From: a virus
Lineage: Duplodnaviria > Caudoviricetes
IMG/VR virus record: IMGVR_UViG_3300021426_000002
Span: 89,203-153,202 of that record
DNA length: 64,000 nucleotides
Direction: 5' to 3' (one strand)
In this document: positions 2,355-23,728 of the stretch, one piece after another
Layout: every line of letters starts with the position of its first letter
How positions within the stretch are numbered: position 1 is the first letter of the stretch
Made by a program: the position numbers and the translations under genes
The notes under the pieces: generated by a model
The model's database searches: none
What the model was told of the DNA's origin: nothing
Seen by the model: the letters and a program-made list of their open reading frames with translations, nothing else

Positions 2355-2361
2355 ATTATTA

Positions 2362-2390: not shown

Positions 2391-2417
2391 ACTATACATA
2401 GTTAAGGAGGGGTTGAT

Positions 2418-3949: not shown

Positions 3950-3959
3950 GGAGTTACAT

Positions 3960-4904
3960 ATGTCAAGTAAAGCTACGTTAATTATGCTTATTGGTTTACC
4001 CGCAAGCGGTAAATCAACGTGGTCTGAGAGGTATATCAGAGATAAGCCGGAAACTGCTCTGCATTCTTCTGATGCAATTCGTGAAGAATTATTTGGAGAT
4101 ATAGAAGACCAGACAAATAATGCAAAAGTTTTTGAGGAATTAAATAAGCGGGTGTTTGCAGATTTACGGCAAGGAAAGACAGTTATTTATGACGCAACAA
4201 ATCTTAGCAAGCGCCGGAGAATAGCTTTCATCAGACAGCTAAACAATATTAACCCGAAAAAGATTGCTGTGTTATTTGCAACTCCATACGAGCAATGTTT
4301 AGCAAGGAATAATAACAGAGAGCGTGTTGTGCCGGAATACGCAATGAAGAAAATGTATTTCAGTTTTGAACCACCGCATTTCAGTGAAGGTTGGGATGAA
4401 ATTGAAATGATTGAGGATGTAGAAGAAGAGTTTGACACATTGTTTGATATTTCATTGCTGTTTACTGGTAAGAATGGTATTGACGGATTCGATCAGAAAA
4501 ATAAACATCATTCAGCGACACTTGGTAAGCATTGCAGACTTGCAGAAGAATATATAAAGAAACATAAACAAGATGATTCAATCCTTGCGATGGCGGGATT
4601 GCTACACGATTTAGGCAAGGTAAAAACTCAGAGCAAGTATAATTCAAAGGGCGTGTTTGACGGTAATTATCACTACTATCAACATCATTGCGTTGGTGCT
4701 TATGATTCGCTGTTTTACGCTGCTGAGTTATATGACAGCCTTGACGATATTTTGCGTTTGTCAAATTTAATTTTCTACCACATGCATCCGTATCTTTCAT
4801 GGAAACAATCTGAAAGAGCAAAAGAGAAAGACAAGCGCATTATAGGCAGTGAAATGTTTGACGATATTTTACTGCTCCATGATGCAGACGTAGCTGCACA
4901 CTAA
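3960..4904 (+). CDS. polynucleotide kinase (AAA_33) fused to HD phosphoesterase
   Basis: P-loop GLPASGKST, DATN and RNNNRER kinase motifs; C-terminal H...LLHDLGK...H...HM...D HD domain; RBS AAGGAG. Confidence 0.8.
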   Translation: MSSKATLIMLIGLPASGKSTWSERYIRDKPETALHSSDAIREELFGDIEDQTNNAKVFEELNKRVFADLRQGKTVIYDATNLSKRRRIAFIRQLNNINPKKIAVLFATPYEQCLARNNNRERVVPEYAMKKMYFSFEPPHFSEGWDEIEMIEDVEEEFDTLFDISLLFTGKNGIDGFDQKNKHHSATLGKHCRLAEEYIKKHKQDDSILAMAGLLHDLGKVKTQSKYNSKGVFDGNYHYYQHHCVGAYDSLFYAAELYDSLDDILRLSNLIFYHMHPYLSWKQSERAKEKDKRIIGSEMFDDILLLHDADVAAH

Positions 4905-4924
4905 AAAAATAGAGCGGAGTAATA

Positions 4925-5951
4925 ATGATAGAAGTAAAAGAGCGGAAATCCGAAATCTTCCAACAGTTATTAGCTGACGCTCCCGATAATTTCATAATAT
5001 CTGATAGCCTGGAACGAGCGCAAATTATTATTTCTAATCCAAAGTATAGAAAAATAATTTGTGCTGTGTCCGGGGAGTGATTCAGATTTAATGGTCGATT
5101 TACTTACAAAAATAGATATTGACCATAAGATAGATTACGTGTGGTTTGATACCGGATTGGAGTATCAAGCAACTAAGACACACATTAAAGATTTAGAAAC
5201 GAAATATGGAATCGAGATTAAGCCATACAAAGCGATTGTTCCGATACCTATATCATGCAAGCGCTTTGGTCAGCCGTTTATTTCTAAACGAGTATCAGAT
5301 TATATAAGCAGACTTCAAAGACATAATTTCCAATTTGAAGATGAATCATTCGATGCTCTTTATAAGAAGTATCCAAAATGTAAAGTTGCTTTGCGTTGGT
5401 GGTGTAATGAATGGCATAACAATAATGGTGGCAAAAGTCAATTCAATATTTCTCACAATAAATGGCTCAAAGAGTTTATGGTTGCTAATCCGCCAACATT
5501 CAAGATTTCAAATGTTTGTTGTCAGAAAGCAAAGAAAGACGTTGCGCACAAATGTATTTCTGATAATAGTTATGATCTTAATATCATTGGTGTTAGAAGA
5601 GCAGAGGGCGGTGTAAGAGCAGTTAGTTATAAATCTTGTTTTAGTAATAAAGAACAATGCGATGAATACAGGCCGTTGTTCTGGTATACAGACAAAGACA
5701 AAGCTGAGTACAAAGACTATTACAAAGTTCAGTACAGTGATTGTTATGAAGTGTATGCGCTAAGAAGAACCGGTTGCGCTGGCTGCCCTTTCGGTAGAAA
5801 TTTTGAATACGAATTAGAAGTCATTGGCAAGTACGAGCCAAAATTGTTAAAAGCTGTCAACAATATATTTGGTGATAGTTATAAATATACAAGAAGATAC
5901 AAGGAATTTGCAAAAGAAATGAATGCAAAAACCAAAACAGAAAAAGTATAA
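4925..5951 (+). pseudogene. PAPS/APS reductase-family protein, frameshifted in the PP-loop
   Basis: ATG 4925 reads to ...IICAVSGE* (TGA 5078-5080). The adjacent frame continues GSDSD...FDTGLEY...CC...GVRRAEG...RTGCAGCP. The break is in the G4 run at 5072-5075. Confidence 0.75.
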
Positions 5952-5963
5952 GGAGAGTAGAGA

Positions 5964-6611
5964 ATGGCAGACGTTAGTATTTTTACTAAGCTGAACGGCA
6001 TTGATGTTTCCAGCAAAGTTAAAACCAAAAACGGCCTTACATATCTTCCGTGGTCTTCTGCGGTTGCAGAGGTCAAGAAGCTGTATCCGGATATGGAAAT
6101 CAAGATTTATCCACAAGTGATGGATCAGTTTGGCAATACAAGATTCTGGCATGACGATGGTAAAACCGGCTGGGTCGAAGTTGGCGTAACCATTAACGGC
6201 AAAGAAGAAAGAGAAGTCCTTGCAATTATGGATTTTAAAAACAAAGCTATTCCGGCTGACAGTATCACATCAACAGATGCAAATAAGGCTATGAAGCGTT
6301 GCATGGTAAAAGCGATTGCGCTTCATGGGTTGGGTCTATACGTTTACTATGGCGATGATCTTCCGGAAGACGTTACAAAAGCTGCTCAGTTGCAAACAGA
6401 AATTCTTGAACTTATGAAGAAGAAAATCGGTGCAGCAAACGACAAAGAAGCGGTAAAGAAGAAGATTGCTGATTATGCAAAATCCGCTGAAAAAGAAGCA
6501 GACCCGACTCTTGATGAAGAACTGATTATTGGCGATCCACGCAATATCAGCGATCCGGATATTCTTACAAAACTTAAAAAGCAGATTCTTGCCATCAGAG
6601 CAAGCAAATAA
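5964..6611 (+). CDS. Sak3/DUF1071 single-strand annealing recombinase
   Basis: LTYLPWS and NKAMKRCMVKAIALHGLGLYVY.GDDLP motifs; adjacent to SSB. Confidence 0.8.
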   Translation: MADVSIFTKLNGIDVSSKVKTKNGLTYLPWSSAVAEVKKLYPDMEIKIYPQVMDQFGNTRFWHDDGKTGWVEVGVTINGKEEREVLAIMDFKNKAIPADSITSTDANKAMKRCMVKAIALHGLGLYVYYGDDLPEDVTKAAQLQTEILELMKKKIGAANDKEAVKKKIADYAKSAEKEADPTLDEELIIGDPRNISDPDILTKLKKQILAIRASK

Positions 6612-6625
6612 TAAGGAGAAATAAT

Positions 6626-7057
6626 ATGGGATTCAGACAGGCAACAGTAAATGAAAAAGGTCAGTATGTCGGCGGTTATGCAAGAGTATGGTCTATCAGT
6701 GAAAAGAATGGCTTTGTAACTGGTAATTTAAGTACGTCCCGCAAGCTGAAAGATCCAGATCGTTATGAGACAGACTTTCAGGATGGTTATGTAAGTTTCT
6801 TCGGCGCTTGCGCTGATAAGATTAAGAGCGTTGATATTCCGGACAGAAAGGGTGTTGGAATTCAGATTCTTTCTTGCGAGGTCAGAAATAAGTATGACGA
6901 AAACGCAAAGCGTACATACGTCAATTATAATATTTATGATTTTAAATTCACAGATCAGAAATCAGAAGCACCGGTAACAAAGAAAACTCCGGAAAAGAAG
7001 AAAGAAGAATTCATGAATATTCCCGATGGAGTAGATGAAGAACTTCCGTTCAATTAA
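6626..7057 (+). CDS. ssb: single-stranded DNA-binding protein
   Basis: OB-fold-sized protein with acidic C-terminal tail EFMNIPDGVDEELPFN. Confidence 0.75.
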   Translation: MGFRQATVNEKGQYVGGYARVWSISEKNGFVTGNLSTSRKLKDPDRYETDFQDGYVSFFGACADKIKSVDIPDRKGVGIQILSCEVRNKYDENAKRTYVNYNIYDFKFTDQKSEAPVTKKTPEKKKEEFMNIPDGVDEELPFN

Positions 7058-7069
7058 TGAGGGTTCGCA

Positions 7070-7687
7070 ATGGTTAATAAGGAGAATGTCGAAATTTTTG
7101 AAAGCCTCCTTAGAATGACGGAGAGAGAAGGTATAGAAGATTTGATTTCTTTTTTAAGGAAGTCAGACTTCTATACTGCTCCGGCAAGCACAAGATTTCA
7201 TTCTTGTCATGAGGGTGGCTTACTTGAACACACATTAAATGTTTGCGAATGTGCGCTTAACAAACTTGATAATCCGGTTTGGAGCGAATCGCTTAAAAAT
7301 GTAACCACAAAGAATGTTCTCATTTCCGCTCTTCTTCATGATGTATGTAAAACCTATTTCTATGGTACAGAGTTAAAGAATAAGAAGATTTATTCTGATA
7401 CCGGCAAGAAGATTGATTCTAACGGAAGGTATGATTGGGAAACCGTACCATGTTATACAGTTGACGATAAGATACCGTATGGACACGGAGAGAAGTCTGT
7501 CATGATGGTTGAAACTTATATCAAGTTAGAACCAGTAGAGAGATATGCTATCCGCTGGCACATGGGTTTTACAGAACCGAAAGAAAATTGGAACTGTTTT
7601 TCCAGCGCAATTAAGCTACATCCATTTGTGCTTGCGCTGCATACATCAGACCTTGAAGCCACATATCTTCTTGAAAAGGAAGAGTAA
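7070..7687 (+). CDS. HD-domain phosphohydrolase
   Basis: FYTAPASTRFH..GGLLEH, ALLHDVCK, GHGEKS and IRWHMG motifs. Confidence 0.8.
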   Translation: MVNKENVEIFESLLRMTEREGIEDLISFLRKSDFYTAPASTRFHSCHEGGLLEHTLNVCECALNKLDNPVWSESLKNVTTKNVLISALLHDVCKTYFYGTELKNKKIYSDTGKKIDSNGRYDWETVPCYTVDDKIPYGHGEKSVMMVETYIKLEPVERYAIRWHMGFTEPKENWNCFSSAIKLHPFVLALHTSDLEATYLLEKEE

Positions 7688-10542: not shown

Positions 10543-11345
10543 GTATTTACGAAGAACAGATTGCTAACATGCGGTGGTCGTATTCCAGGTTGTGCGCATT
10601 TGAGCAATGCAGATATGCGTTTTACCTAAGATACATTATAAATGATCCGGATTTGTATTTAGACGAAGGTAACTTCTATGCCGAGGTCGGTTCATTTTGT
10701 CACAGCATTTTAGAAAAAATATTTAACGGTGAACTATCGCCGGAAGAAGCGTCTGAGTATTACTATCAGCATTTTGATGAAAATGTATTATATACTGTTA
10801 AGCCATCAATCATGGAAAAGACTTACGAGATTTGCGCTAATTACTTTGCAGACTTTAATCTTAACTGGTTGAAAGGCTATAAGGTTATTGGCGCAGAGAA
10901 AAAAGTTGAAACCACGATTAACGGACATGATTTTCTTGGCTTTATTGACTTGCTGATAGAAGATGAAAAAACCGGTGATTTGATTATTGTGGATCATAAG
11001 AGTGCAGCTTATCCATTCAAAAAAGATGGTAAGTCTGTACTGAAAAAATCCGAGAGAACTTTTAATTCATACAAAAAGCAAATGTATTTATATGCATATG
11101 CTGTCTATCAAGAATACGGCAAATATCCTACAGAAATTTGGTGGAATCATTTTAAAGATAACAAGATTGCAAAAATCAAATTTGATATGAATGATTACAA
11201 TGAAGCTATTGCATGGCTTGAAACCACCATTGAAGAAATTAAAAAAGAGGAAGAGTTTGGCGAAACCGCCGATTTCTTCTATTGTTCGAATATTTGCGAA
11301 TACAGGAATTGTTGTGAATACCGTGAATTTGGCGGTGATGAATAA
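10539..11345 (+). CDS. PD-(D/E)XK nuclease (RecB/AddB/Cas4-like)
   Basis: WSYSRL..FEQC, GSFCH, GFIDL, IVDHKS and QMYLY motifs; C-terminal CxxxCxxxxxC; likely TTG start at 10539 behind AAGGA. Confidence 0.8.
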   Translation: MSIYEEQIANMRWSYSRLCAFEQCRYAFYLRYIINDPDLYLDEGNFYAEVGSFCHSILEKIFNGELSPEEASEYYYQHFDENVLYTVKPSIMEKTYEICANYFADFNLNWLKGYKVIGAEKKVETTINGHDFLGFIDLLIEDEKTGDLIIVDHKSAAYPFKKDGKSVLKKSERTFNSYKKQMYLYAYAVYQEYGKYPTEIWWNHFKDNKIAKIKFDMNDYNEAIAWLETTIEEIKKEEEFGETADFFYCSNICEYRNCCEYREFGGDE

Positions 11346-12539
11346 ATGAGTACGCTGTATTTTCCGTATCACATGCACACAATGCTGAGTAGTGGTACTA
11401 CCAATATTGATAGTATCACTCACTATCAGCAGTATGTTGATGCAGCCAAAGCATGTGGAATGGCTGGCTTATGTATTTCAGAACATGGTAATACATTTGC
11501 GTGGGTAAAGAAAAAAGAAGCGATTGAAAAAGCCGGAATGAAATATGTTCACGGTGTTGAAGCGTACATAACGGAGGATAATAACCAAAGCGAAAAGAAA
11601 CATCGTGACAATTACCATTGTGTTCTTATGGCGAGAAATTACGCTGGTGTAAAAGAAATTAATAAACTTGTGTCAAGATCATACACAAGAACAGATAACC
11701 ACTTTTACTACATGCCACGTATTTTCATGGATGAACTTTTTGCAACGTCAGAGAATATTATTGTTACGTCCGCCTGTTTGGGCGGTGTTCTGAATAATGG
11801 AACTGATGAAGCAAGAGAGCGAATGCTTTGTTTCATGGCACAGAATAAAGAGCGGTGTTATCTTGAAATTCAGCATCATGATATTGCAGAACAGATAGAA
11901 TATAACAAGTATTTATACAACGTCAGTAAAGCCACAGGAATTCCGCTGATTGTTGCTACTGATACTCACGCTTTAGACAAATCACAGATGGAAGGTCGAG
12001 CCGTTTTACAGAAAGCGAAAGACGTTCGGTTTGCAAATGAAGACAAAATGGATTTAACTTTCAAGACACCAGAAGAATTGGATGAATGCTGGCGAAAGCA
12101 AGGTTCATTACCTATGTCTGTTGTCGAAGAAGCTAAAGCCAATAGTATGAAACTACTTGATTCTATCGAGGAATTTGAATTAGATCATTCTGCGAAATAT
12201 CCAAAGTTATACGACAATTCGGAGGAAGTCTTTAAGCAGAAAATCAATGCTGGTTATGTTTGGCGCAAAATCGGTCAGAAGCCAAACAAGCAAGAGTACA
12301 TTGATAAGATTCATTACGAATATGAAACGTATAAGCACAACAACGCTATTGATTTCATGCTGCTTGAAGAAGACTATAAATCTGAAATGCGAAGGCGTGG
12401 AGTCCGGTTTGGATATAGCCGTGGTTCAGTAAGTGGCAGTATTATAGCTTACCTTTTAGGAATTACAGAAATAGATAGTATTAAATACAATTTGAACTTT
12501 GAGCGCTTCATGTCAAAGGAGCGGGTCAGTCTAGCAGAT
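11346..12539 (+). CDS. dnaE: DNA polymerase III alpha subunit, exon 1
   Basis: PHP domain (HMHT, SEHG, TDTH), SRGSVSGS, FERF...ERVSLAD; ends in U at the predicted 5' splice site. Confidence 0.9.
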
Positions 12540-13663
12540 TAAGAGAAATTCTATAATGAGGTGAATTTTTATAGAGTATTCCGAAGCATTAGATTATTAC
12601 AAATTATATCAAAATGGAGTAAGTACATTTCAACTTGAAAAATTATTCGGTCACAATCATAGTTATTTTTTAAGTAATTTTAAGAAGTATGGTTTTGAAA
12701 TAAGAAGCAACAAAATAAATTCAAGAAAATATAAAGCAAATTTCTCTTACTTTCAAAATATAGATTCGCATGAAAAATCATACTGGCTTGGATATATTTA
12801 TGCTGATGGTTATGTTATGGAAATGAAAAGTGGAAGAAAAAGATTTGGCATGACACTTTCATCAAAAGATAAATCTCAGCTTGAAAAACTTAAAAAATGT
12901 CTTGAAGCAACTTATCCAATTAAGGATTATGAACAACATCAAGGATATTCTATTGGCAGCACATATTCAAGACTGATAATTGATAGTGAAGAAATGTTCG
13001 ATGATTTAGTTTCACATGGAGTATTGTTAAATAAAACTAATATTATAAAACCACCCAATATTGATAAAGAATTTATATCATCTTTTATATTAGGTTATTT
13101 TGATGGCGATGGAAGTATATTTTTAAATAATTGTAAATCACCATTTTACAGTATTTGCATAGTTGGGACAGATGAACTATTAGCATTTATACACAATTAT
13201 TTTGTGGAATTAAAAATAACAAATCGAGAACTCCATTTAGAAAAGAGAAAAGAAAATCAAAATGTTAGCTATATAAGATATGGCGGTAATAATTTAGTAG
13301 CAAGGATCATGGAAATTCTGTATGAAAATATAGATTCGTCTTTGCCATTAGAGAGAAAAAGACAACTATATTTGAATTGCAAAAATAGAATATTCTAGGT
13401 CGTGCATGTCAGCAATGGTATGTATTATCAGAACGTGAACTATATTGCTTATAGGTGTGCGTGAAAACGTGCTAACGGTGAAGGCTAAATACTTTGGTAC
13501 ATGCTAATACCGTGTCAAGTTGGATTTATCCAAAAGATGTAACGACTATTCCGTTGCGGGAAGTAGGGTTGAGGATAAGCTACAACCCGAAGTGCGTTCT
13601 GCCCCATGTGGGTAAAGAGATAGTCTATTCCCTACAAATATTGCGAAAGCAAGGGTATTAAAG
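12540..13663 (+). mobile_element. group I self-splicing intron in dnaE (1124 nt)
   Basis: Joining gat(12539)|gtt(13664) restores ERVSLAD-VDTDW in frame. The intron ends in G and has core elements ACGGTGAA...ATACCGT, AACGACTA and GAGATAGTCT. Confidence 0.9.
12571..13398 (+). CDS. intron-encoded double-motif LAGLIDADG homing endonuclease
   Basis: Frame is open from 12565. Motifs are YWLGYIYADG (upstream of the ORF-track start) and FILGYFDGDG. Probable ATA start at 12571 behind GAGGTG. Confidence 0.8.
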   Translation: MEYSEALDYYKLYQNGVSTFQLEKLFGHNHSYFLSNFKKYGFEIRSNKINSRKYKANFSYFQNIDSHEKSYWLGYIYADGYVMEMKSGRKRFGMTLSSKDKSQLEKLKKCLEATYPIKDYEQHQGYSIGSTYSRLIIDSEEMFDDLVSHGVLLNKTNIIKPPNIDKEFISSFILGYFDGDGSIFLNNCKSPFYSICIVGTDELLAFIHNYFVELKITNRELHLEKRKENQNVSYIRYGGNNLVARIMEILYENIDSSLPLERKRQLYLNCKNRIF

Positions 13664-15853
13664 GTTGATACAGACTGGCTATCCGAAGACAGAAAAATTG
13701 TTAAAGATTATCTATTCAACAAAGAAGGTTTGTATTGCTGCGACATTGTAACGTTTAACACAATCGCTTTAAAGGGCGCAATCAAAGACGTTTGTCGTGG
13801 TTTAGCGAAAGATAATATCGACAAGCTGCCAAAAGAAATTTTAGACAAGGTTAATGATTGGAACAAAGAGCAAGCAAAGAAAGAAAAGGAATCAGCGCTT
13901 GCCGGATGTATATATAAACCAAAACCATATCCAAAGGAATTACAACGAGAGATCGAAAGACATTCAGTACATAATGTGCCGTTTGACTATCTAAAATTCT
14001 CAGAAGAGATTATTGCTCTTGCAGAATTAGACGTAGACAACGCACGAAAAAAGTACAAAGAAGTTTTTCGCTATGTCGATATGGTAAATGGCGTTGTCGT
14101 TTCAGTTGGCAATCATCCGGCTGGTTGTGTTGTTTCTCCGTATCCGGTTGATGAATGGTTTGGTACGTTTACTACAACAACAGATGAATATCCGATTTCC
14201 GTTCTTAATATGAAGGAAATTGATAGTCTAAATTTTGTAAAGCTGGATATACTTGGTCTGGATAACATCGGTCTAATTTACAAAACTTGTGACGCTGCCG
14301 GAATTCCATTTGCTACACCAGATAACATACCAGCAGACGATGAAGCTGTATGGCAAAGTATTAAAGATGATACAACAATGATTTTCCAGTGGGAATCTCA
14401 ATCAGCGACAGCATACTTAAAGCAGTTGTTTAGTGATGAAACCATAGCGAAGATTAAAGCGGTTAATAGTGATTTTTCCTATATGAACTTGCTGTCAATC
14501 GGAAATGGTGCAATCCGTCCAGCGGGTGAATCATACCGTGACAAATTGGCGAACGGCGAATATAAGCTGTATGGTAATGCAGCGCTTGACGAATTCATGA
14601 AACCAACATTGGGATACATGGTTTATCAAGAGCAGATTATTGAATTCTTAAATAAGTTTTGCGGATTTACGATGGGTGAAGCGGACGTTGTAAGGCGACA
14701 CTTCTCAAAAAAAACAGGAACGGAAACAGATATTCCAATTATTAAAGATGGTGGTTATCTAAACGAAGGACACTATATCAAAGGTTTCATACAAACCATG
14801 CAAGATGAATACGGTATCTGCCGAGAAGAAGCCGAAAATTTGATTGGTGATTTCTTGCAAGTTATCATTGACGCATCGGATTACCTGTTTTCAAAAAACC
14901 ACGCTGATCCTTATTCATGGATTGGTTACATTTGTGGTTATCTCAGATATTATTATCCGCTAGAATTCATAACTTCCGCACTAAACATCTTTGAAGATAA
15001 AGAAGAAAAAAGTCTTGCAATCATTGATTATGCCAAAAGAAGAGGGATAACAATTTCTCCGATTAAGTTCCGGCATTCTGTTGCGCAATACAATTTCGAT
15101 AAAGAGACAAATCAAATCTTCAAAGGTCTTGCGTCAATTAAGTATTTGAATTCTATAATCGCAGATGAAATCTATGCGCTAAAAGATAACCAATATGACA
15201 CATTCATTGATTTGCTCATGGACTTAAAAACAAAAACGTCACTTGACTCACGGCAAACAGAGATTCTTATTGACTTGGATTTCTTCTCTGAATTTGGCGA
15301 AACCAATAGTTTGATTTTCCAGTATAAGATTTTGAATATCTTTTTCGATAAAACCAAACGACAATTCAAGAAGCAATTCTCAAAAGATAAGTTAGAAGCG
15401 ATGAACGTTCCATTGGATTACATACGGCCATTTGCCGGAAAAGAAACTCAGAAGATGTTCACGCAAGTTGATGCTTTACAATTTTTGCGGTTCTTGTCAA
15501 CAAAAGTAAAGGTTAAACCACGTACATTGGCAGAAAAAGTAAATGCGCAGCAAAAGCGGTTAGGCTACATAGATGTAAAAGATGATCGTTATAAAAACCA
15601 TTTTGTGATTTTGGAAGTTGATACAAAGTATTCTCCAAAGATTAAAGCGTATTCCTTGCGGTCTGGCGAAGTGCTGACTTACAAAATCAATAAGCGTATT
15701 TATAGTAGAAACAAGCTGACGGAAGGAACGATTGTTTTAGTTAATAAGAAAGAAACCAGAAACAGAGTGCGCAAAACCGAAAATGGATTTGAAGATGTTC
15801 CAGGCGTTTTTGATGTTTGGTGGACAAGTTATCAAGAGGTAGACAATCTGTAA
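13664..15853 (+). CDS. dnaE: DNA polymerase III alpha subunit, exon 2
   Basis: VDTDW, HPAGCVVS, KLDILGL, IFQWES, YQEQII and YLFSKNHA motifs; in frame with ORF 13730-15853. Confidence 0.9.
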   Translation, partial: VDTDWLSEDRKIVKDYLFNKEGLYCCDIVTFNTIALKGAIKDVCRGLAKDNIDKLPKEILDKVNDWNKEQAKKEKESALAGCIYKPKPYPKELQREIERHSVHNVPFDYLKFSEEIIALAELDVDNARKKYKEVFRYVDMVNGVVVSVGNHPAGCVVSPYPVDEWFGTFTTTTDEYPISVLNMKEIDSLNFVKLDILGLDNIGLIYKTCDAAGIPFATPDNIPADDEAVWQSIKDDTTMIFQWESQSATAYLKQLFSDETIAKIKAVNSDFSYMNLLSIGNGAIRPAGESYRDKLANGEYKLYGNAALDEFMKPTLGYMVYQEQIIEFLNKFCGFTMGEADVVRRHFSKKTGTETDIPIIKDGGYLNEGHYIKGFIQTMQDEYGICREEAENLIGDFLQVIIDASDYLFSKNHADPYSWIGYICGYLRYYYPLEFITSALNIFEDKEEKSLAIIDYAKRRGITISPIKFRHSVAQYNFDKETNQIFKGLASIKYLNSIIADEIYALKDNQYDTFIDLLMDLKTKTSLDSRQTEILIDLDFFSEFGETNSLIFQYKILNIFFDKTKRQFKKQFSKDKLEAMNVPLDYIRPFAGKETQKMFTQVDALQFLRFLSTKVKVKPRTLAEKVNAQQKRLGYIDVKDDRYKNHFVILEVDTKYSPKIKAYSLRSGEVLTYKINKRIYSRNKLTEGTIVLVNKKETRNRVRKTENGFEDVPGVFDVWWTSYQEVDNL

Positions 15854-16386
15854 TGCTAGAGAATTATATGTATACTGAATCAGAACAGCGAAAGTTGTTA
15901 TCTTCAATCGTTGTTCTGATTGATACTAGAGAACAAAGAAACCAACATATAACAGATTATTTCGATCAGCATAATATCCCATACAAATCAAAGGCACTTG
16001 ATTATGGCGATTATAGCTTTATGCTGCCGAAGAATGAAGAATTAGGCATTTTAAAAAATATTTCTTTTGAAAAAGAAATTGTGATTGAGCGCAAGAATAG
16101 CGCCGAGGAATTGGCGTTGTGCTTAACCAAAACAAGGCAGAGATTTGAAGATGAATTCATTCGTGGCGCAAAAGCAAAAAAGTATCTTGTTGTTGAGAAC
16201 TGTGATTATAAAGATATTATAACCGGCAATTATAACAGCGAATACAAAAGCAAAAGCTATTTAGGAAGTCTGCACAGCTTTGACCATAAGTTTGATTTGC
16301 GAATTATGTTTCTTCCGGATAAAGGCTGTACGCCGGTATTTATCATTGCTACTTTCAATTACTATTTGCGTGGATTAATAAAGTAA
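15853..16386 (+). CDS. ERCC4-domain nuclease
   Basis: IDTREQ...GDY...IERK...E signature. Confidence 0.8.
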   Translation: MLENYMYTESEQRKLLSSIVVLIDTREQRNQHITDYFDQHNIPYKSKALDYGDYSFMLPKNEELGILKNISFEKEIVIERKNSAEELALCLTKTRQRFEDEFIRGAKAKKYLVVENCDYKDIITGNYNSEYKSKSYLGSLHSFDHKFDLRIMFLPDKGCTPVFIIATFNYYLRGLIK

Positions 16387-16400
16387 GGTGGTGAAATATC

Positions 16401-16694
16401 ATAAGAATAGCTGTAATTGGCAAAACGCAATCATGGTGTGTGAATTGGTTTGAAAATTTTTTGGCTAAAACTCCGCATGATTGTATTGAGAGAGTTACTA
16501 AAAGCAGAAGCGAACCATATAAGATATTATTGAAAAGCGGAATTATGCTTCAATCTGTTGTTTTAAACGACAAGTTAATAGGAATGAGATTCGACAAAAT
16601 TTATGTCGATCCAACAATAGATGATTTAATCGTGAAAACAGTTATATATCCAATGATATATAATCCACGAAATGTAATCATTGAAGATAATTAA
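16401..16694 (+). CDS. hypothetical protein
   Basis: Frame open from 16395; candidate ATA start at 16401 behind AAGGTGGTG, or GTG at 16440. Confidence 0.45.
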   Translation: MRIAVIGKTQSWCVNWFENFLAKTPHDCIERVTKSRSEPYKILLKSGIMLQSVVLNDKLIGMRFDKIYVDPTIDDLIVKTVIYPMIYNPRNVIIEDN

Positions 16695-16709
16695 ACAAAG
16701 GAGAGAAAA

Positions 16710-17153
16710 ATGGTTTTAAGAGAAGTTACTGGCGATTTGTTTACTGCACCGCAAGGATATTATCTTGCACATTGCATCAGTGGTAATTACACTTTAGGCG
16801 CTGGTATCGCTAAAAAGTTTGATGAAGTGTACGACATGAGATTTAAGCTGCACAGAGATTATCCCATCCCGAATGGCGAGAAGTTTGATAAGGGGTTAAT
16901 CGGCAAGGCGCTACTTGTTGACAATGTATTTAATCTTGTAACAAAGGATGTTCATTGGCATAAACCGTCATATGACAGTTTGCGTGAGTGCCTTTGCGAT
17001 ATGAGAGATTGGACAGAGGAATTGCGCATTAAGAAGTTGGCAATGCCGAGAATCGGTTGCGGTCTTGATAAACTCGATTGGAACATTGTCGAAGAAATTA
17101 TCGAAGAAGTCTTTGAAGGCGCAGACGTTGAGATTGTGATTTATAAACTGTAA
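16710..17153 (+). CDS. macrodomain ADP-ribose glycohydrolase, TARG1/OARD1-DarG class
   Basis: GDLF, LAHCIS...GAGIA, FNLVTK (catalytic Lys position) and MPRIGCGLD.L.W motifs. Confidence 0.85.
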   Translation: MVLREVTGDLFTAPQGYYLAHCISGNYTLGAGIAKKFDEVYDMRFKLHRDYPIPNGEKFDKGLIGKALLVDNVFNLVTKDVHWHKPSYDSLRECLCDMRDWTEELRIKKLAMPRIGCGLDKLDWNIVEEIIEEVFEGADVEIVIYKL

Positions 17154-18373
17154 TGGATAATGAATATAGACCACGTTACTTAGTTATGGTTACAGCCGGA
17201 AACAACAACAAGTATTATCGTCAAATTCCAAATGGCGATGGTACTTGGCTTGCTGAATACGGCAGAGTTGGCGCTACACCGCAAAAGCGCACTTACTCAA
17301 TGAGTAACTATGATAAGAAATATAAAGAGAAGATTAACAAGGGATATGTGGATCAGACAGAACTTGTTGAAGATTTAATTATCAAAAAGAAGGACAACCA
17401 AAAGAAGGAATATAAAGACATTGAGAATTCTGCTATTGCCGAGATTGTTGAGAAATTACAGCGTATGGCAAAACAAGCAATTCAAAGTAATTACAATATT
17501 TCTTCTGATAAAGTTACTCATGCGATGGTTGACGAAGCACAGGTAATAATCAATGGTTTGCTTGCCATTGACATTGTTGAAATTTTCAATAATGAATTGC
17601 TGAAATTATTTACCGTCATTCCACGAAAAATGTCTGACGTTAGTTATTGCTTGGCAAGTTCAAAAGAAGAATTCACGAAAATCATCCAGCGGGAACAGGA
17701 TTTGCTTGACGTTATGAAAGGTCAAGTAGTAGAAAAACAAACCATCGAAGAGGATACGGATACTACAACAGAACACGATTGCACAATCCTTGAAGCGCTT
17801 GGACTTGAATTTGAAGAATGTGATAGAGAAGATATTGCTAGGATCAAAGCTGCTCTTGGAGATTGCTCACACAAATTCAGTAGAGCGTGGAGAGTAAAGA
17901 ATAATAAGACGCAAAAACTCTTTGATGATTTTGTCCGAGACAACAAGATTAATGATATTAGGTTGTTGTTCCACGGCAGCCGAAATGAAAATTGGTGGTC
18001 GATCATTAACACTGGCTTAGTGCTTAGACCAACCAATGCAGTAATTACCGGAAAGATGTTTGGTTACGGTATTTATTATGCGCCGAAAGCTAGGAAATCA
18101 TTAGGCTATACATCGCTATCTGGATCGTATTGGGCGAACGGTAATTCTAATATTGGTTACATGGCTTTAATGGATGTAGCTTACGGCAAACCGTATAACG
18201 TACATACTTTTGATAGCAAGTATTATAATTTTGATTATGAAAAGTTACAAAGGAATTGTCCTGGCGCTAATTGCTTACATGCACACGCTGGTCAAATGTT
18301 GCGGAATGATGAAATTGTTATTTACAAGAAAGAGCAAAGTACAATCCGCTATTTTGTAGAAATCAAAAACTAA
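17153..18373 (+). CDS. poly(ADP-ribose) polymerase-like protein (WGR + helical regulatory + ART catalytic domain)
   Basis: WGR domain NNNKYY...YGRVG...KYKEK; helical domain LFTVIP; catalytic LLFHGSR...TGKMFGYGIYYA...KS..Y...NDEIVIY (H-Y-E triad). Confidence 0.9.
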   Translation: MDNEYRPRYLVMVTAGNNNKYYRQIPNGDGTWLAEYGRVGATPQKRTYSMSNYDKKYKEKINKGYVDQTELVEDLIIKKKDNQKKEYKDIENSAIAEIVEKLQRMAKQAIQSNYNISSDKVTHAMVDEAQVIINGLLAIDIVEIFNNELLKLFTVIPRKMSDVSYCLASSKEEFTKIIQREQDLLDVMKGQVVEKQTIEEDTDTTTEHDCTILEALGLEFEECDREDIARIKAALGDCSHKFSRAWRVKNNKTQKLFDDFVRDNKINDIRLLFHGSRNENWWSIINTGLVLRPTNAVITGKMFGYGIYYAPKARKSLGYTSLSGSYWANGNSNIGYMALMDVAYGKPYNVHTFDSKYYNFDYEKLQRNCPGANCLHAHAGQMLRNDEIVIYKKEQSTIRYFVEIKN

Positions 18374-18420
18374 TACAGAAAAGTAATATACTTGACAAAA
18401 ATAAGAAAATATGGTATAAT
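18366..18420 (+). promoter_or_regulatory. sigma-A promoter preceded by the conserved motif
   Basis: AAAACTAATACAGAAAAG (18366-18383), TTGACA (18392-18397), 17-bp spacer, TGgTATAAT (-10 at 18415-18420). Confidence 0.85.
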
Positions 18421-18436
18421 AGGAGATGTTTAATAC

Positions 18437-19111
18437 ATGAATATTGTCAAACCGTCATATGTAATTTTGACAGAGTTTTCCGAAGGTGGAGAAGAAGAGT
18501 TAAAGTTTATTGAGCAGATTGCACGTAAATGCTATAAATCCGAGAACTATATTTCAGAAGACGCATCCAGCGCAAGAAAGATGATTCAAAATCTGATTAA
18601 GTCTGGACATACTGCGATGATTGAACACAGTATCCTTTCGGTATGCTTCACAGTTGATCGTGGCATTTCCCATGAAATCGTAAGACACCGGTTAGCGTCT
18701 TTCGCACAGGAGTCTACAAGATACTGCAATTATTCAAAGGGCAAGTTTAATAACGAAATCAATGTTATTGATATTGAAGGCGGAATTAGACTTGATGCTA
18801 AGATGAAAGATTTGCCGGAAGAAACGATTCAGAAAATTATTGCTGAATGGGTTTCCGCCATGAATGACGCAGAAAACCACTACATGAACTTGATTGAATT
18901 GGGAGCGACACCGCAGATTTCAAGAGGGGTTTTGCCTAATTCGCTTAAAACTGAAATCGTGGTAACTGCGAACTTCCGTGAATGGAGAAACATTCTGACA
19001 TTAAGGACTGAACATTTTGCACATCCTCAAATCAGAGAGGTTATGATCCCGCTGCTCAATGAACTGAAACAGCGTATGCCGATTATATTTGACGATATCG
19101 AAATTAAGTAA
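18437..19111 (+). CDS. thyX: FAD-dependent thymidylate synthase
   Basis: GHTAMIEH, RHRLASFAQESTRY and NFREW motifs. Confidence 0.95.
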   Translation: MNIVKPSYVILTEFSEGGEEELKFIEQIARKCYKSENYISEDASSARKMIQNLIKSGHTAMIEHSILSVCFTVDRGISHEIVRHRLASFAQESTRYCNYSKGKFNNEINVIDIEGGIRLDAKMKDLPEETIQKIIAEWVSAMNDAENHYMNLIELGATPQISRGVLPNSLKTEIVVTANFREWRNILTLRTEHFAHPQIREVMIPLLNELKQRMPIIFDDIEIK

Positions 19112-19135
19112 AAACCAAAACAGAAAAGGATTATA

Positions 19136-19672
19136 ATGTTAGTTTTAGTTGGTGAAAGTGCAAGCGGTAAATCTACTTTGCAGAATTTAATCACAAAAGA
19201 ATTTAATCACGTTAAGATTGTCACTTACACTACAAGGCCAATTCGTGCGGGAGAAATAGACGGATTCTCTTATCATTATATTTCAGACGAAGAATTCTTG
19301 CGGTTAGACTCCGAAGGATTCTTTGTCGAAACCGCAGAATACAACGGTTGGCATTATGGTACTCCGTTTAATGAGTGTAGTGATTCTAACGATGTAAATG
19401 CTGTATTAACTCCGGCTGGATTAAGAGCATTAAAACGCAAAGGCATTAAGACAGTTTCAATCTATTTAAAGGTTGATCGGAGGTCACGGCTAATTAAGAT
19501 TTTGGAGCGTGGCGATAACATAGAAGAATCTTATCGCCGGAATTTGTCTGATGTAGGTCAATTCGATTCTATAGAAAAAGAAGTTGATTATGTGATTGAT
19601 AATTCTGGTTATAAGAAAGATGTTTATGAATTGCTGCGAGAAGTAGAAAGAATACTGGACGAAAATGAGTAA
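19136..19672 (+). CDS. gmk: guanylate kinase
   Basis: GESASGKST, TTRPIRAGE.DG..YHY and YGT motifs. Confidence 0.85.
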   Translation: MLVLVGESASGKSTLQNLITKEFNHVKIVTYTTRPIRAGEIDGFSYHYISDEEFLRLDSEGFFVETAEYNGWHYGTPFNECSDSNDVNAVLTPAGLRALKRKGIKTVSIYLKVDRRSRLIKILERGDNIEESYRRNLSDVGQFDSIEKEVDYVIDNSGYKKDVYELLREVERILDENE

Positions 19673-20126
19673 AGAAATAAAGATTTATACTTGCGGAAAA
19701 ATGAAAGGCTTGACATATGAAGAACAAATGTCTTGGCGCAATAACATTCAACGGTTGATCGAAAACCGGTTTAGATACTCAAATGATGGAAGTACAAAGC
19801 TGATTTTCGTTCATCCTCCGCAGTATTACAGATATGACAAAGACTATCAGAAATCAGAGCGAGAAATTATGGAATGGGAATTAAACCAAATCCGTGATAC
19901 CGACATTCTCATTATTAATGCCGAAGGCATTGGTGAAAGTATCGGTTCGCATTTTGAAATGGGTGTAGCGTGGTCTATGAACCATTTCGGCAATAAACAT
20001 ATTTCGGTAATTGGTATCAACGAAAATGAAGAATGTTTGCATCCGTGGATTCAAGAATCTTTTTTGCGTGTTGAAGATTCTATGAGCGATGCTGCTGATT
20101 TCATCGTTGAATACTTAATTATATAA
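19665..20126 (+). CDS. nucleoside 2-deoxyribosyltransferase-like protein
   Basis: IYTCG.M.G...WR, D+L+ and SIGSHFEMG pattern. Confidence 0.65.
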   Translation: MSKEIKIYTCGKMKGLTYEEQMSWRNNIQRLIENRFRYSNDGSTKLIFVHPPQYYRYDKDYQKSEREIMEWELNQIRDTDILIINAEGIGESIGSHFEMGVAWSMNHFGNKHISVIGINENEECLHPWIQESFLRVEDSMSDAADFIVEYLII

Positions 20127-20146
20127 AAACTAATTGGAGGTACTTA

Positions 20147-20353
20147 TTGGAGCAAATAATTTTATACAAAACGCCTACATGCCCGAAGTGTAAGGTTTTG
20201 AAAAAGAAGTTAGAAGACAAAGGTGTTGAGTTTACGGAGAACGAAGATATTGATGAAATGCTGTCTATGGGTATCATGAACGCTCCAACGCTCAGTGTCA
20301 ATGGTGAATTACTTGATTTCATGAGTGCCTTAGATTGGGTAAAAAATTACTAA
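20147..20353 (+). CDS. glutaredoxin-like (NrdH-type) redoxin
   Basis: CPKC active site; APTL.VNG; directly upstream of nrdD. Confidence 0.8.
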   Translation: MEQIILYKTPTCPKCKVLKKKLEDKGVEFTENEDIDEMLSMGIMNAPTLSVNGELLDFMSALDWVKNY

Positions 20354-20368
20354 TCGAAAGGCTAAAAC

Positions 20369-22318
20369 ATGAAAATTAATATTCGGCTTGTAAAGAATTT
20401 TGTTCTGCAATACAACAAATTGCAGACAGAATTCGGAACTGAAATTGCAAAGATCAATGGTTTTGATGATGGCCAATTAAGTTATACAGATTTTATAGAT
20501 AACTTTATTGACGAAGATACCGTAGCAGATTCTAGCATTGATGGGAATTCAAATGTCAGCCACAAAGATATTGTTACCCTTGAAAGAGAAATGCCAAAGC
20601 CACATTCGAAATTGCTTGCATTTAACAAAATCTATTATGAGATTCATAAGAGATTTGGTTTTAAAGCAGCTAATGATTGGCTTAGAGCAGAATGGATTGG
20701 TGCATTATATATGCACGATGCTCCGTCAAGTACATTCAGATCATATTGTTTTGCGTATGATTTAAAAGATTTAGCAGAAAAAGGGTTATACTTTATCGAA
20801 GGGCAAAATCCAAAACCAGCAAAACATTTAACAACGTTTGTAGATTTTGTAAAAGAATTTGTAAGTTTCGCATGTAACCGCACTTCCGGCGCTTGCGGAC
20901 TTCCTAATATCATTCCTTATATGTACTATTTTTGGAAGAAAGATGTTGATAATGATTACTTGGGAATTAGGTCTAGCGGTAATGCAAGGTATTACGCAAG
21001 ACAAAATTTCCAGCGATTCATACATGCTGTCAATCAGCCATACGTGAGAGATGGCTCGCAGTCTGCCTTTACGAATACTTCTGTATTCGATCATCCGTAC
21101 TTTGAAGCCTTGTTTGGTGGTTCAGAATTTCCGGACGGAACTTTCATGATTGACTATGAAGAAGAGATTATTGAATTCCAGAAATGGTACATGGAGGTTA
21201 TGGCTGAAATTAGGAGCGAAAACATGTTCACTTTCCCGGTGAGTACAATTTCACTTCTTAGACAAAACGGCAAATTCGTTGACCATGATTTTGCTGTATG
21301 GGCGATATCGCACAATTTGAAATGGGCGGATTCCAACCTGTTTGTTGATAGTAGCGTAAATTCTTTAAGCAACTGCTGTCGCTTAAAGAGCAACATTAAA
21401 GACTTGGGATATTTTAATTCTATTGGTGGTACTGCTCTGAAAGTTGGATCGGTAAAGGTAAACACAATTAATCTTGCTAGAATTGCACTTGATACAAATA
21501 GCGAAGAAGAATATTTAAAAGAATTAAAAAAGCGTACACGTATCTGTTTGGTCGCTCTTGACGCAGTAAGACACATTATCAGACGCAATGTTGAAAAGGG
21601 GATTCTTCCTAATTTCACATACGGTTTAATTGATTTTGAACATCTTTACAACACAATAGGCTTTATCGGCGTATATGAAACAATGAAGCGTTTCGGTTAT
21701 ATTAAAAATGATGAATTTGATAATACATTCTATACAGATGAAGCGTTTGCATTTGGTGAAAAGATTTTCAAAACAATGAGAAAAGTTGCTGATAATTTCA
21801 TTAAAGATAATAACTGCGATTATCAGATTAACACAGAGCAGATTCCAGGCGAAAGTGCTGCCGACAAACTTATGAAGAAAGATAAATTCTTCTATCCAAT
21901 GGCAGACATTTATGATCTTCCGCTTTACGGAAATCAGTTTATTCCGCTTGGTATCAAAACCACTTTGCAAGAACGTATTCATATAGCTTCTAAGTTTGAC
22001 AGCTATTGTAATGGCGGATCAATCTTGCATGTAAACATTGATGCTCCATTTGATAGTTTTGATAAAGCGTGGAAGATGGTTGAATACATTGCAGAACAAG
22101 GTGTAACGTACTTTGCTTTTAATACTAAAATTCAAGCGTGTGAGAACAATCATGCGTTCTACGGCAAAACGTGTCCTGTTTGTGGTAAACCGGTTTACAC
22201 AGAATATTCGAGAATAGTCGGATTTTACACTAAGATCAAGTCATGGTCAAAACCGAGAACTGATGAATATAAACTGCGTGAATGGGAAAACATAAACGTA
22301 ACATCAGATAAGATATAA
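20369..22318 (+). CDS. nrdD: anaerobic (class III) ribonucleoside-triphosphate reductase
   Basis: YMHD, SNCCRL, EQIPGE, C-terminal C..H...CPVCG and RIVGF glycyl-radical motif; no ATP-cone. Confidence 0.9.
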   Translation: MKINIRLVKNFVLQYNKLQTEFGTEIAKINGFDDGQLSYTDFIDNFIDEDTVADSSIDGNSNVSHKDIVTLEREMPKPHSKLLAFNKIYYEIHKRFGFKAANDWLRAEWIGALYMHDAPSSTFRSYCFAYDLKDLAEKGLYFIEGQNPKPAKHLTTFVDFVKEFVSFACNRTSGACGLPNIIPYMYYFWKKDVDNDYLGIRSSGNARYYARQNFQRFIHAVNQPYVRDGSQSAFTNTSVFDHPYFEALFGGSEFPDGTFMIDYEEEIIEFQKWYMEVMAEIRSENMFTFPVSTISLLRQNGKFVDHDFAVWAISHNLKWADSNLFVDSSVNSLSNCCRLKSNIKDLGYFNSIGGTALKVGSVKVNTINLARIALDTNSEEEYLKELKKRTRICLVALDAVRHIIRRNVEKGILPNFTYGLIDFEHLYNTIGFIGVYETMKRFGYIKNDEFDNTFYTDEAFAFGEKIFKTMRKVADNFIKDNNCDYQINTEQIPGESAADKLMKKDKFFYPMADIYDLPLYGNQFIPLGIKTTLQERIHIASKFDSYCNGGSILHVNIDAPFDSFDKAWKMVEYIAEQGVTYFAFNTKIQACENNHAFYGKTCPVCGKPVYTEYSRIVGFYTKIKSWSKPRTDEYKLREWENINVTSDKI

Positions 22319-22331
22319 TTCAAAAACAAAT

Positions 22332-22811
22332 ATGACAATCAAGGGTCTTGTGGAAGAGGATTTTGTAAATTACAAAGTCCCTTCCATGTTTATTATTACA
22401 AGCTATTGCACATTTAAATGTGATAAAGAAAGCGGAACTAAATGCTGCCAAAATAGTTCTCTTGTATTCCAGAAAAATATCCACATAAGAAATGAAAAAA
22501 TTGTAGAACGATATATCAATAATCCAATATCAGAAGCGATTGTATTCGGCGGTTTAGAGCCAATAGATCAATTCGCTGACGTTATCGACATTATTAAACA
22601 ATTACGAATCAATCATCATTGTAACGATGATGTAGTAATTTATACCGGATACTATGAAAAAGAATGTGCTGACGAAATCAAAGCGCTGAAAGAATTTCCG
22701 AACGTGGTTATTAAGTTTGGCAGATTTATTCCAAATCACGAAAAACATTATGATAAAGTATTGGGAGTTTATCTTTCATCGGATAACCAGTACGCAAAAA
22801 GAATAAGTTAG
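22332..22811 (+). CDS. nrdG: anaerobic RNR activating protein
   Basis: C.FKC...CCQN cysteine cluster, GGLEP, YTGY and SSDNQ; follows nrdD. Confidence 0.85.
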   Translation: MTIKGLVEEDFVNYKVPSMFIITSYCTFKCDKESGTKCCQNSSLVFQKNIHIRNEKIVERYINNPISEAIVFGGLEPIDQFADVIDIIKQLRINHHCNDDVVIYTGYYEKECADEIKALKEFPNVVIKFGRFIPNHEKHYDKVLGVYLSSDNQYAKRIS

Positions 22812-22820
22812 GAGAAAGAA

Positions 22821-23330
22821 TTGGTAAGAGTAGGCGAATTTGAAAAAGTAAGCTATGAAGAATTTCATCAGAGCATGAAAGATATAAACGGCGATTATCC
22901 GGATTATTGGATTAAAGAAATCTATGACAACGTTAAACTGCCAAAAAGAGCAACGTCCGGATCGGCTGGTTATGACTTCTATGCACCGCACGCTATTACA
23001 CTTGCGCCAGGAGAAACAATAAAGATTGCCACAGGCATAAGAGTAAAAATTGAAGAAGGATGGGTATTGCTTGTGTTCCCACGTAGCGGGTTGGGATTCA
23101 AGTATCGTATGCAGCTTAACAATACTGTTGGTGTTATAGACTCCGATTATTATTACTCTGATAACGAAGGCCATATTTTTGCGAAGATCACAAATGACAG
23201 CAACGAAGATAAGACAATTGATATTCAAGCTGGTCATGGCATAATGCAAGGTATATTCATGCCGTTTGGATTAACTTATTCAGACAATGCCGATGGTGTA
23301 AGAAATGGCGGGTTAGGAAGTACGACATGA
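22821..23330 (+). CDS. dut: trimeric dUTPase
   Basis: SAGYD, PRSG, GVIDSDY, Q and RNGGLGST motifs. Confidence 0.95.
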   Translation: MVRVGEFEKVSYEEFHQSMKDINGDYPDYWIKEIYDNVKLPKRATSGSAGYDFYAPHAITLAPGETIKIATGIRVKIEEGWVLLVFPRSGLGFKYRMQLNNTVGVIDSDYYYSDNEGHIFAKITNDSNEDKTIDIQAGHGIMQGIFMPFGLTYSDNADGVRNGGLGSTT

Positions 23331-23728
23331 GATTTTGCGAAGAGATGGAAAAGTTAATCAAGGAAACCGGCGTTAAACTTATTAGATTAGACGAAGATGA
23401 AATTGAAGAAAGAAACCATCTCAAATATCTGTTGGAAGGTTATAAAACCGCACTAAAGATATTCGAAGAAAATCTGAGAGACAGCTTGATAGTTGGTGAA
23501 ATTTATTATGTGGTTAATTACAAAGATGGCTTAACCACAATGCCAATTATCGAGAAAATGAAGTTGTACAAAATTGCGAAACGGCAATACTGCTTTACAT
23601 ACGATCTCAAAAAGAATGGTTGGATTCTTAAAGAAAATCAAAATCTGCGTCTTGGTGCTAAAGAAGTAACAAAGCGAGTTTTCGCAAATGAAGCAATGGC
23701 GAGAAAAGCAATAGGATTAAAGGATTAA
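23327..23728 (+). CDS. hypothetical protein
   Basis: ORF with ATGA overlap; no recognised motif. Confidence 0.5.
   Translation: MRFCEEMEKLIKETGVKLIRLDEDEIEERNHLKYLLEGYKTALKIFEENLRDSLIVGEIYYVVNYKDGLTTMPIIEKMKLYKIAKRQYCFTYDLKKNGWILKENQNLRLGAKEVTKRVFANEAMARKAIGLKD

Follow-up and report, generated by a model that had tools for sequence, protein, structure and literature searches.

PARP1-3-type enzymes are usually regarded as eukaryotic DNA-damage sensors with few bacterial representatives: between 28 and 72 bacterial sequences of this type are listed in reviews, along with about thirty bacterial TARG1 proteins. Two bacterial PARPs that carry a WGR domain, HaPARP of Herpetosiphon aurantiacus and CdPARP of Clostridioides difficile CD160, make poly(ADP-ribose) (PAR) in vitro, and HaPARP activity requires DNA (PMC5966428). 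On the removal side, human TARG1 takes off PAR chains as a block, and the human enzyme and its bacterial counterpart act on mono(ADP-ribose) (MAR) as well as on PAR (PMC6397177). The substrates cleared by TARG1 enzymes comprise MAR attached to Glu/Asp, entire PAR chains, and ADP-ribose on DNA. DNA-ADP-ribose at unligated Okazaki fragments is written and erased by human PARP1 and TARG1 (PMC11102865). Phages also encode such proteins: the PARPs of Aeromonas phage Aeh1 and Cellulophaga phage phi4:1, along with viral TARG1-like genes, were reported in 2014 (PMC4245714), annotated phage PARPs extend to the Xanthomonas jumbo phages Xoo-sp13 and XacN1 (PMC4245714, PMC7824862, PMC9503650), and comparative surveys place the PARP family among the most frequent viral ADP-ribosyltransferases (ARTs) (PMC7824862, PMC9503650). 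We found no explicit description of a conserved TARG1–PARP operon in the literature searched; a prior description in a review by Aravind and colleagues (PMC6126934) is possible. Here, we describe such an operon in a 64,000-nucleotide window of phage DNA, the final 64 kb of the 153,202-bp IMG/VR virus record IMGVR_UViG_3300021426_000002, which has direct terminal repeats and a completeness rating of 100%.

The window carries a TARG1-type macrodomain gene that runs directly into a PARP gene. In the chromosomal bacterial PARPs, the functional partner is a bacterial PARG encoded elsewhere (PMC5966428), whereas the PARP described here is phage-borne and coupled to a TARG1-type macrodomain. Likewise, unlike human TARG1 and the Fusobacterium mortiferum enzyme FmTARG1, the macrodomain protein is phage-encoded and shares an operon with a PARP; the genome that encodes FmTARG1 has no PARP at all, and its TARG1 gene belongs to an operon of the polymorphic-toxin type (PMC6397177). 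We consider it reasonably probable that the pair forms an ADP-ribosyl writer/eraser module that responds to DNA breaks, belongs to a large siphovirus-type Clostridia phage, and is expressed with the replication genes. Two open reading frames (ORFs) overlapping by TAATG had been proposed in the original prediction, and both were read in the sequence where it placed them. The features of the pair are as follows.

16697-16705, + strand: Shine-Dalgarno-like AAAGGAGAG, 4 nucleotides 5' of the macrodomain start codon, read from the sequence
16710-17153, + strand: TARG1-type macrodomain gene encoding P0001, 147 residues, a predicted ADP-ribosyl hydrolase ("eraser")
17151-17155, + strand: TAATG stop/start overlap, the A at 17153 being common to both codons
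17153-18373, + strand: PARP gene encoding P0002, 406 residues, with WGR, helical, and ART domains and the triad H274, Y308, E387
17174-17338, + strand: WGR domain, about residues 8-62 (strands at 8-49 and a helix at 50-62 in the model)
17357-17797, + strand: helical (regulatory-type) domain, about residues 69-215, all-helical in the model
17804-18367, + strand: ART catalytic domain, about residues 218-405 (Pfam PARP on residues 244-405; model; Foldseek)

As judged from its sequence and predicted structure, P0002 is a PARP with the architecture of PARP2/3 minus the N-terminal tail, and it is nearest in sequence to PARP2 and PARP1. P0002 matches Pfam PARP (1.2e-19), Pfam WGR (8.9e-5; 23 bits against a cut-off of 22), and PHROG 23333 (1.8e-56). 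The catalytic motifs quoted in the original prediction are all present at the expected positions: LLFHGSR at residues 271-277, TGKMFGYGIYYA at 299-310, KS..Y at 315-319, and NDEIVIY at 385-391. Under purifying conservation, H274, G275, Y308, K315, Y319, and E387 are invariant in 48 homologues that are 37-55% identical to the query. The WGR domain has YGR in place of WGR (Y36, G37, R38) and possesses the NNNKYY motif; Tyr is usual at the first WGR position in bacterial PARPs (PMC5966428). Conservation across the same homologues is 100% for N19, at least 97% for K20, 97% for G37 and for R38, and 83% for Y36, and Pfam WGR is matched by 42 of the 48 (best 1.2e-10).

Comparison with human PARPs gives the same picture across the whole protein. 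Positions 12-400 of the 401-position family profile align in one piece with the WGR, helical, and ART domains of human PARP2 at 3.7e-35, followed by PARP1 (7.9e-34), PARP3 (2.5e-20), PARP4 (8.8e-18), and the tankyrases (about 5e-13). Compared with the earlier label "PARP1/3-like", then, the sequence is nearer to PARP2 and PARP1 than to PARP3. The AlphaFold2 model of P0002 (pLDDT 90.8, pTM 0.86) has as its top Foldseek matches the WGR-catalytic chains of PARP2 and PARP1 on DNA double-strand breaks, with TMq up to 0.72 over alignments of 474-488 columns; against the catalytic domains of PARP1, 2, 3, and 4, E-values are 1e-16 to 1e-20. In the profile alignment, the helical domain pairs with that of PARP1/2, an F..L..LF..IPR motif standing opposite FYTRIPH of PARP2. 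P0002 and human PARP2/PARP1 (PDB 6x0l, 6usj, 4dqy) thus have the same domain order and the H-Y-E, HGS, G.MFG.GIY, and KS..Y elements in common, at Foldseek E-values of 1e-20 to 3e-19 and 16-19% identity in structural alignments. Unlike the human enzymes, P0002 has no zinc fingers, BRCT domain, or N-terminal region. An architectural parallel is found in the bacterial PARPs of the "Clostridiales clade 1.2" and in HaPARP and CdPARP, which by published description share the minimal WGR-helical-ART arrangement. We also asked whether the acidic loop formed by residues 190-213 might be a conserved site of Glu/Asp automodification and rejected this idea: its Asp/Glu fraction is 0.127, versus 0.121 for the whole protein, and its sequence is variable in the 48 homologues.

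P0001 is, by sequence and model, a macrodomain of the TARG1 type, predicted to hydrolyze Glu/Asp-linked ADP-ribose, PAR chains, or DNA-linked ADP-ribose. It matches Pfam Macro at 3.7e-5 and PHROG 335 at 1.9e-30. The motifs LAHCIS (residues 19-24), LVTK (76-79), and PRIGCGLD (113-120) lie where they had been quoted. Its best relative of solved structure is human TARG1/OARD1 (6.9e-23 over the full length; DarG, 1.5e-8, both among PDB entries), and a profile built from 25 phage macrodomain homologues gives 3.1e-35 for TARG1 and 2.3e-7 for DarG. K79 of LVTK, invariant in the 25 homologues, aligns with the catalytic K84 of human TARG1 (ITK), and D120 aligns with the catalytic D125 in the GCGLD motif that both proteins share. 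The AlphaFold2 model (pLDDT 93.5) is a compact fold without MacroD-type extensions that matches TARG1 (4j5s, 4j5q) with a TM-score of 0.86-0.88, a root-mean-square deviation of 1.8-1.9 Å, and 35-38% identity in Foldseek. At 147 versus 152 residues, P0001 is similar in length to human TARG1/OARD1 (4j5r, 4j5s, 4j5q), with the same fold and the catalytic Lys and Asp kept. For both proteins, then, Pfam, profiles, and models uphold the domain assignments of the original prediction (WGR, helical, and ART with H-Y-E; macrodomain with catalytic Lys and Asp), and the best matches (TARG1 for P0001, PARP2 for P0002) far exceed what chance would give.

P0001 belongs to the same macrodomain subclass as DarG of DarTG and the phage DarG-like mimics and has the same catalytic Lys. 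Its model matches DarG with a TM-score of 0.82 in Foldseek, and its sequence matches DarG models of PADLOC (1.5e-16, model positions 25-144 of 329) and NCBIfam (1e-12, 48 bits against a cut-off of 250). Unlike DarG, P0001 is without the C-terminal DarT-binding domain, has a PARP rather than DarT as its partner, and is much closer to TARG1. Identity as a DarG antitoxin was considered and rejected on the grounds of length (147 versus about 330 residues, macrodomain only), the NCBIfam score, and the lack of a DarT neighbor: the two genes flanking the macrodomain gene, that for an 84-residue protein (orf84) and the PARP gene, match no PADLOC or NCBIfam model.

The two genes are likely to be translationally coupled. 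As read from the sequence, no Shine-Dalgarno-like element precedes the PARP start codon, and this, combined with the TAATG overlap, makes termination-reinitiation the likely mode of coupling. The overlap and the conserved adjacency described below both bear out the writer/eraser coupling originally proposed. A lack of co-occurrence in related phages had been named beforehand as refuting, and the pair clearly came through this test. We compared 80 IMG/VR loci, given below as L numbers, whose PARPs are 53-96% identical to P0002, and the macrodomain gene is adjacent to the PARP gene at 76 of them. Specifically, at 72 loci tblastn places a TARG1-like macrodomain directly upstream of the PARP or parted from it only by an inserted gene; at L054, L069, and L070 the protein encoded upstream matches Pfam Macro but has diverged too far to be picked up by tblastn; and in L066 the macrodomain lies one gene downstream of the PARP. 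Elsewhere, L067 and L080 are short contigs that end close upstream of the PARP gene, the nearest macrodomain in L053 is 19.5 kb from the PARP, and none was detected at L081. With PARPs clustered at 80% identity, the adjacent macrodomain is present in 23 of 28 evaluable clusters, and it is present in 10 of 12 evaluable loci from bacterial genomes or metagenome-assembled genomes (MAGs). With the macrodomain as the starting point instead, a PARP gene is present at 61 of 69 loci. Spacing between the two genes is mostly -16 to +13 bp across relatives.

The pairing is conserved across lineages while its surroundings change. Flanking genes are less constant across the 80 loci: dnaE is kept in 49, ERCC4 in 31, ndt in 17, gmk in 14, and thyX in 7. 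The paired macrodomains themselves range from 98% down to 24% identity and fall into a TARG1-like group with both Lys and Asp, a group with the Lys and a CCGRGG loop, and a GGGIAKQ type. In several related phages, a free-standing GIY-YIG/NUMOD homing endonuclease gene occupies precisely the junction of the macrodomain and PARP genes, which beyond this insertion are no further apart. Because adjacency is kept while flanks vary, macrodomain types swap, and insertions are tolerated, the conserved pairing argues for a functional link beyond inherited synteny.

Two sets of these loci deserve separate mention. The macrodomain upstream of the PARP in L069 (3540-3998) and L070 (3543-3998) is of a different type, with GGGIAKQ and GCGLAGG motifs and without the LVTK lysine, and it looks from its sequence like a non-orthologous replacement of the eraser. 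The homing endonuclease insertions lie at L029 3120-3644, L043 448-1281, L045 3127-4011, L064 3211-3891, and L065 3091-3984; an ORF at L078 248-1141 matches them in size and position, the domain scan having covered the other five loci.

In the mechanism that we favor, P0002 would act as a PARP1/2-type NAD+-dependent ADP-ribosyltransferase. Its WGR domain would bind DNA nicks or ends and thereby relieve inhibition by the helical domain, leaving the ART domain free to act on itself, on DNA, or on replication or repair proteins in its vicinity. P0001, made from the same transcript by termination-reinitiation, would strip these marks, as whole chains, single Glu/Asp units, or DNA-linked ADP-ribose, and so render the signal transient. 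Activation by DNA breaks is suggested by the WGR domain and, by analogy, by the DNA dependence of HaPARP. What is inferred in this scheme is enzyme activity and its dependence on DNA, whether ADP-ribose is added singly or as a polymer, which targets are modified, and that the role lies in replication or repair rather than in host takeover.

Several observations weigh against the scheme. First, the search with domain models found WGR, PARP, and Macro above curated cut-offs, as had been foreseen, but Pfam PARP_reg matches only 1 of the 48 PARP family members. The helical domain is divergent, and regulation through it may differ because PARP_reg misses the other 47; the Clostridiales clade of bacterial PARPs likewise has helical domains without a PARP_reg match (PMC5966428). 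Second, the original prediction pointed out that chain elongation needs the Glu of H-Y-E. E387 is indeed present, but about 18 residues before the catalytic Glu are absent from the family, and Asn385 occupies the position of PARP1 Y986, which controls how long and how branched the chains become and whose variants alter both properties (PMC7544232). Polymer formation is uncertain because of this gap and the Asn; the triad is compatible with polymer synthesis, not proof of it. Third, the equivalent of Asp125 is absent from about half of the paired macrodomains, which have CCGRGG-type loops instead. Fourth, related phages share ancestry, and their synteny is partly inherited rather than independently selected. 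Fifth, each gene also occurs alone: PARPs no more than 40% identical to P0002 have no adjacent macrodomain in Cellulophaga phi4:1, a 279-kb contig, and another contig, and TARG1-like macrodomains occur without a PARP in Fusobacterium phage Fnu1, Lactobacillus phage LP65, Bacillus phage G, and Lysinibacillus phage LC76P1. Profile comparison of the ORFs upstream of the PARP in L053, L081, L101, and L102, or downstream of it in Cellulophaga phi4:1, revealed no hidden macrodomain (probability <1%). The phi4:1 protein is a full-length WGR-PARP homologue (30% identity over 99% of the query, E 4e-41; same PHROG 23333); unlike the situation here, no macrodomain was detected in the whole phi4:1 record, and its PARP gene lies between genes for a tRNA nucleotidyltransferase and a DNA ligase. 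Finally, the literature searched yielded no biochemical work on a phage PARP.

The alternative that fares best, to which we assign a minor yet appreciable chance, is that the two genes play independent roles in phage-host conflict. The macrodomain would serve counter-defense, as an orphan antitoxin mimic that clears ADP-ribose attached to phage DNA or proteins by host systems such as DarT, and the PARP would serve host takeover. There is precedent in phage T4, whose Alt, ModA, and ModB modify host proteins for cell takeover. The similarity of P0001 to DarG in PADLOC, NCBIfam, and Foldseek fits this idea, as do the several cultured phages with a TARG1-like macrodomain and no PARP. DarG-like or NADAR orphan antitoxins against DarTG are known in phages (PMC11481870, PMC11825919, PMC13309987), and comparative reviews propose host-protein modification by phage PARPs (PMC7824862, PMC9503650). 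However, the PARP retains its WGR module and sits in a replication block rather than among early takeover genes, and in some lineages another macrodomain type fills the same slot. Moreover, independent roles leave the tight coupling unexplained: the genes are nearly always adjacent and translationally coupled, across PARP clusters and with changing flanks. The idea is plausible and partly compatible with a writer/eraser module, and the eraser could serve both ends.

We regard as quite improbable a toxin-antitoxin-like or exclusion module, in which a triggered PARP drains NAD+ or modifies the cell, the macrodomain restrains it, and the outcome is abortive infection or a lysogen closed to competing phages. 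The eraser-first overlapping order does resemble that of antitoxin-toxin operons, and ART-macrodomain and sirtuin-macrodomain pairs exist in bacteria and phages (PMC9503650). In addition, a prophage or carrier state would fit the finding of close relatives in cultured isolates and on long contigs from cellular genome records (Lacrimispora amygdalina, Ruminococcus sp. YE282, Clostridium sp. AM45-5). The pair, however, lies inside a conserved block of replication and nucleotide-metabolism genes and not in a variable island, and P0001 has no counterpart of the C-terminal toxin-binding domain of DarG. Searches with PADLOC and NCBIfam returned no defense-system model or named family for the PARP, orf84, or ERCC4 proteins. 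NAD+ depletion would also cripple the NAD-dependent DNA ligase that the phage itself encodes at about 70.2 kb of its genome, and no NAD+ salvage genes (NAPRTase/NAMPT family or AAA_28/NadR-kinase type) that could offset a drain were found in the phage genome. Thus, the NAD-draining toxin entertained in the original prediction fits poorly with the replication-operon location, the defense-model searches, and the phage's own ligase.

A last idea, that P0001, P0002, or both only bind without catalysis (as readers) or come from genes in decay, is very hard to credit: about half of the relatives' paired macrodomains have no Asp125 equivalent and single-sequence Pfam scores for Macro and WGR barely exceed threshold, but in this phage the H-Y-E triad is complete and the two catalytic positions of TARG1 are kept, all of them invariant or nearly so in diverse homologues, both models are confident, and both ORFs are intact in about 80 relatives.

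Within the writer/eraser reading, we tentatively advance a narrower version, one that we hold to be rather unlikely: the pair could mediate replisome-linked signaling of DNA nicks and ends, doing for the phage what the PARP1-TARG1 axis does in humans where Okazaki fragments are unligated. Nicks or ends would lead to ADP-ribose on phage DNA or on replisome or ligase proteins, and the mark would be erased so that ligation and packaging can proceed. Were this to hold, the large phages that infect gut Clostridia would amount to a major and thus far neglected reservoir of enzymes of the PARP1-3 and TARG1 types, and might even be where these enzymes originated in evolution.

The size of the family gives this notion some scope. 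An exhaustive search of 1.84 billion cluster representatives (50% identity clusters) returned 2813 PARP clusters at E <=1e-3 and 664 at E <=1e-30, most of them about 400 residues long, and macrodomain matches numbered more than 2000 clusters at 90% identity. Genes with readable context lie on large phage contigs or Clostridia-assigned genome contigs, where the writer is wired to a TARG1-type eraser. PARP and TARG1 in phages were already known; what this locus adds is a documented operon and a family far larger than the reviews suggest. The two proteins are small, soluble-looking, and well modeled, which makes the pair a tractable minimal system that could reveal the use of ADP-ribosylation to a replicating phage.

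The gene neighborhood is that of a replication operon, and Pfam matches of the upstream genes agree with the placement of the pair after dnaE and ERCC4 in the original prediction.

11346-12542, + strand: dnaE part 1 (Pfam), N-terminal, comprising PHP and the beginning of the polymerase core
12817-13398, + strand: LAGLIDADG ORF (Pfam), between the dnaE halves
13730-15853, + strand: dnaE part 2 (Pfam), C-terminal part
15817-16386, + strand: ERCC4 nuclease gene (Pfam)
16440-16694, + strand: orf84 (84 residues), between ERCC4 and the macrodomain gene
18392-18420, + strand: putative sigma-A-type promoter (TTGACA, 17 nucleotides, TG, TATAAT), 12/12 consensus match

Downstream of the PARP gene lie thyX, gmk (guanylate kinase), an Ndt-like gene, and nrdD/nrdG, as assigned by Pfam. 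The promoter at 18392-18420, directly 3' of the PARP stop codon and before thyX, is the sole perfect sigma-A-type match in 11000-23500. On the consensus match alone, it appears to mark the start of a thyX unit and the 3' end of a dnaE-to-PARP unit; because the sole perfect promoter follows the PARP stop, the macrodomain-PARP pair appears to close the dnaE transcription unit. A sequence scan of the stretch from dnaE to the macrodomain gene revealed neither a strong promoter nor a strong terminator, and the pair shows no internal promoter. GC content around the pair is that of the remaining window, and the phage genome has one PARP gene and one macrodomain gene.

The host is probably a gut or rumen member of Clostridia because the nearest cultured phages by DnaE are large siphoviruses of Clostridioides, Bacillus, and Lysinibacillus, and because close relatives of the PARP come from Clostridia MAGs of gut samples and from the isolates Lacrimispora amygdalina and Ruminococcus sp. 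YE282. Comparison with the phage collection at the nucleotide level turned up no cultured phage closely related at this locus.

Several smaller features of the window accompany these genes. The LAGLIDADG ORF that divides dnaE (11346-15853) is consistent with a mobile element of the intron or intein type. The orf84 gene (16440-16694) is kept only in L004, the 96%-identical relative, and Pfam, PADLOC, and NCBIfam assign its product to no family. The Ndt-like protein (153 residues, 19665-20126), encoded between gmk and nrdD and kept in 17 of the 80 related loci, scores 23.7 and 22.4 bits against nucleoside 2-deoxyribosyltransferase families, both sub-threshold. One copy of an 18-bp repeated motif lies at 18366, just upstream of the -35 box of the promoter at 18392-18420.

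Related loci offer further observations on the company that the PARP gene keeps. In three lineages without an adjacent macrodomain, a DNA ligase gene is next to or one gene away from the PARP gene: an NAD-dependent LigA in L080 (193-1131) and ATP-dependent ligases in L097 (5728-6972) and Cellulophaga phi4:1 (L001 6641-8053). This proximity is anecdotal but suggests a tie to the metabolism of nicks or breaks. In L017 (2983-3984) and L018 (2980-3984), the gene immediately before the PARP is a single ORF of 333-334 residues that joins an AAA_28 P-loop domain to a TARG1-like macrodomain. NadR-type nicotinamide riboside kinases are among the members of Pfam AAA_28, and the fusion may connect to NAD+ salvage. 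Another AAA_28 gene is near the PARP in the distant locus L101, a 279-kb contig on which the PARP (39% identity) lies, within 1700-7322, among RNA-repair-type genes (AAA_28, PNK3P phosphatase, RtcB ligase) and not among replication genes. Finally, a conserved small protein with a common domain of about 90 residues and no convincing Pfam match, not found in the window by tblastn, is encoded directly downstream of the PARP in one subclade (L066 5202-5675, L096 5207-5677, L067 1989-2297, L069/L070 5249-5551, L080 2498-3079).

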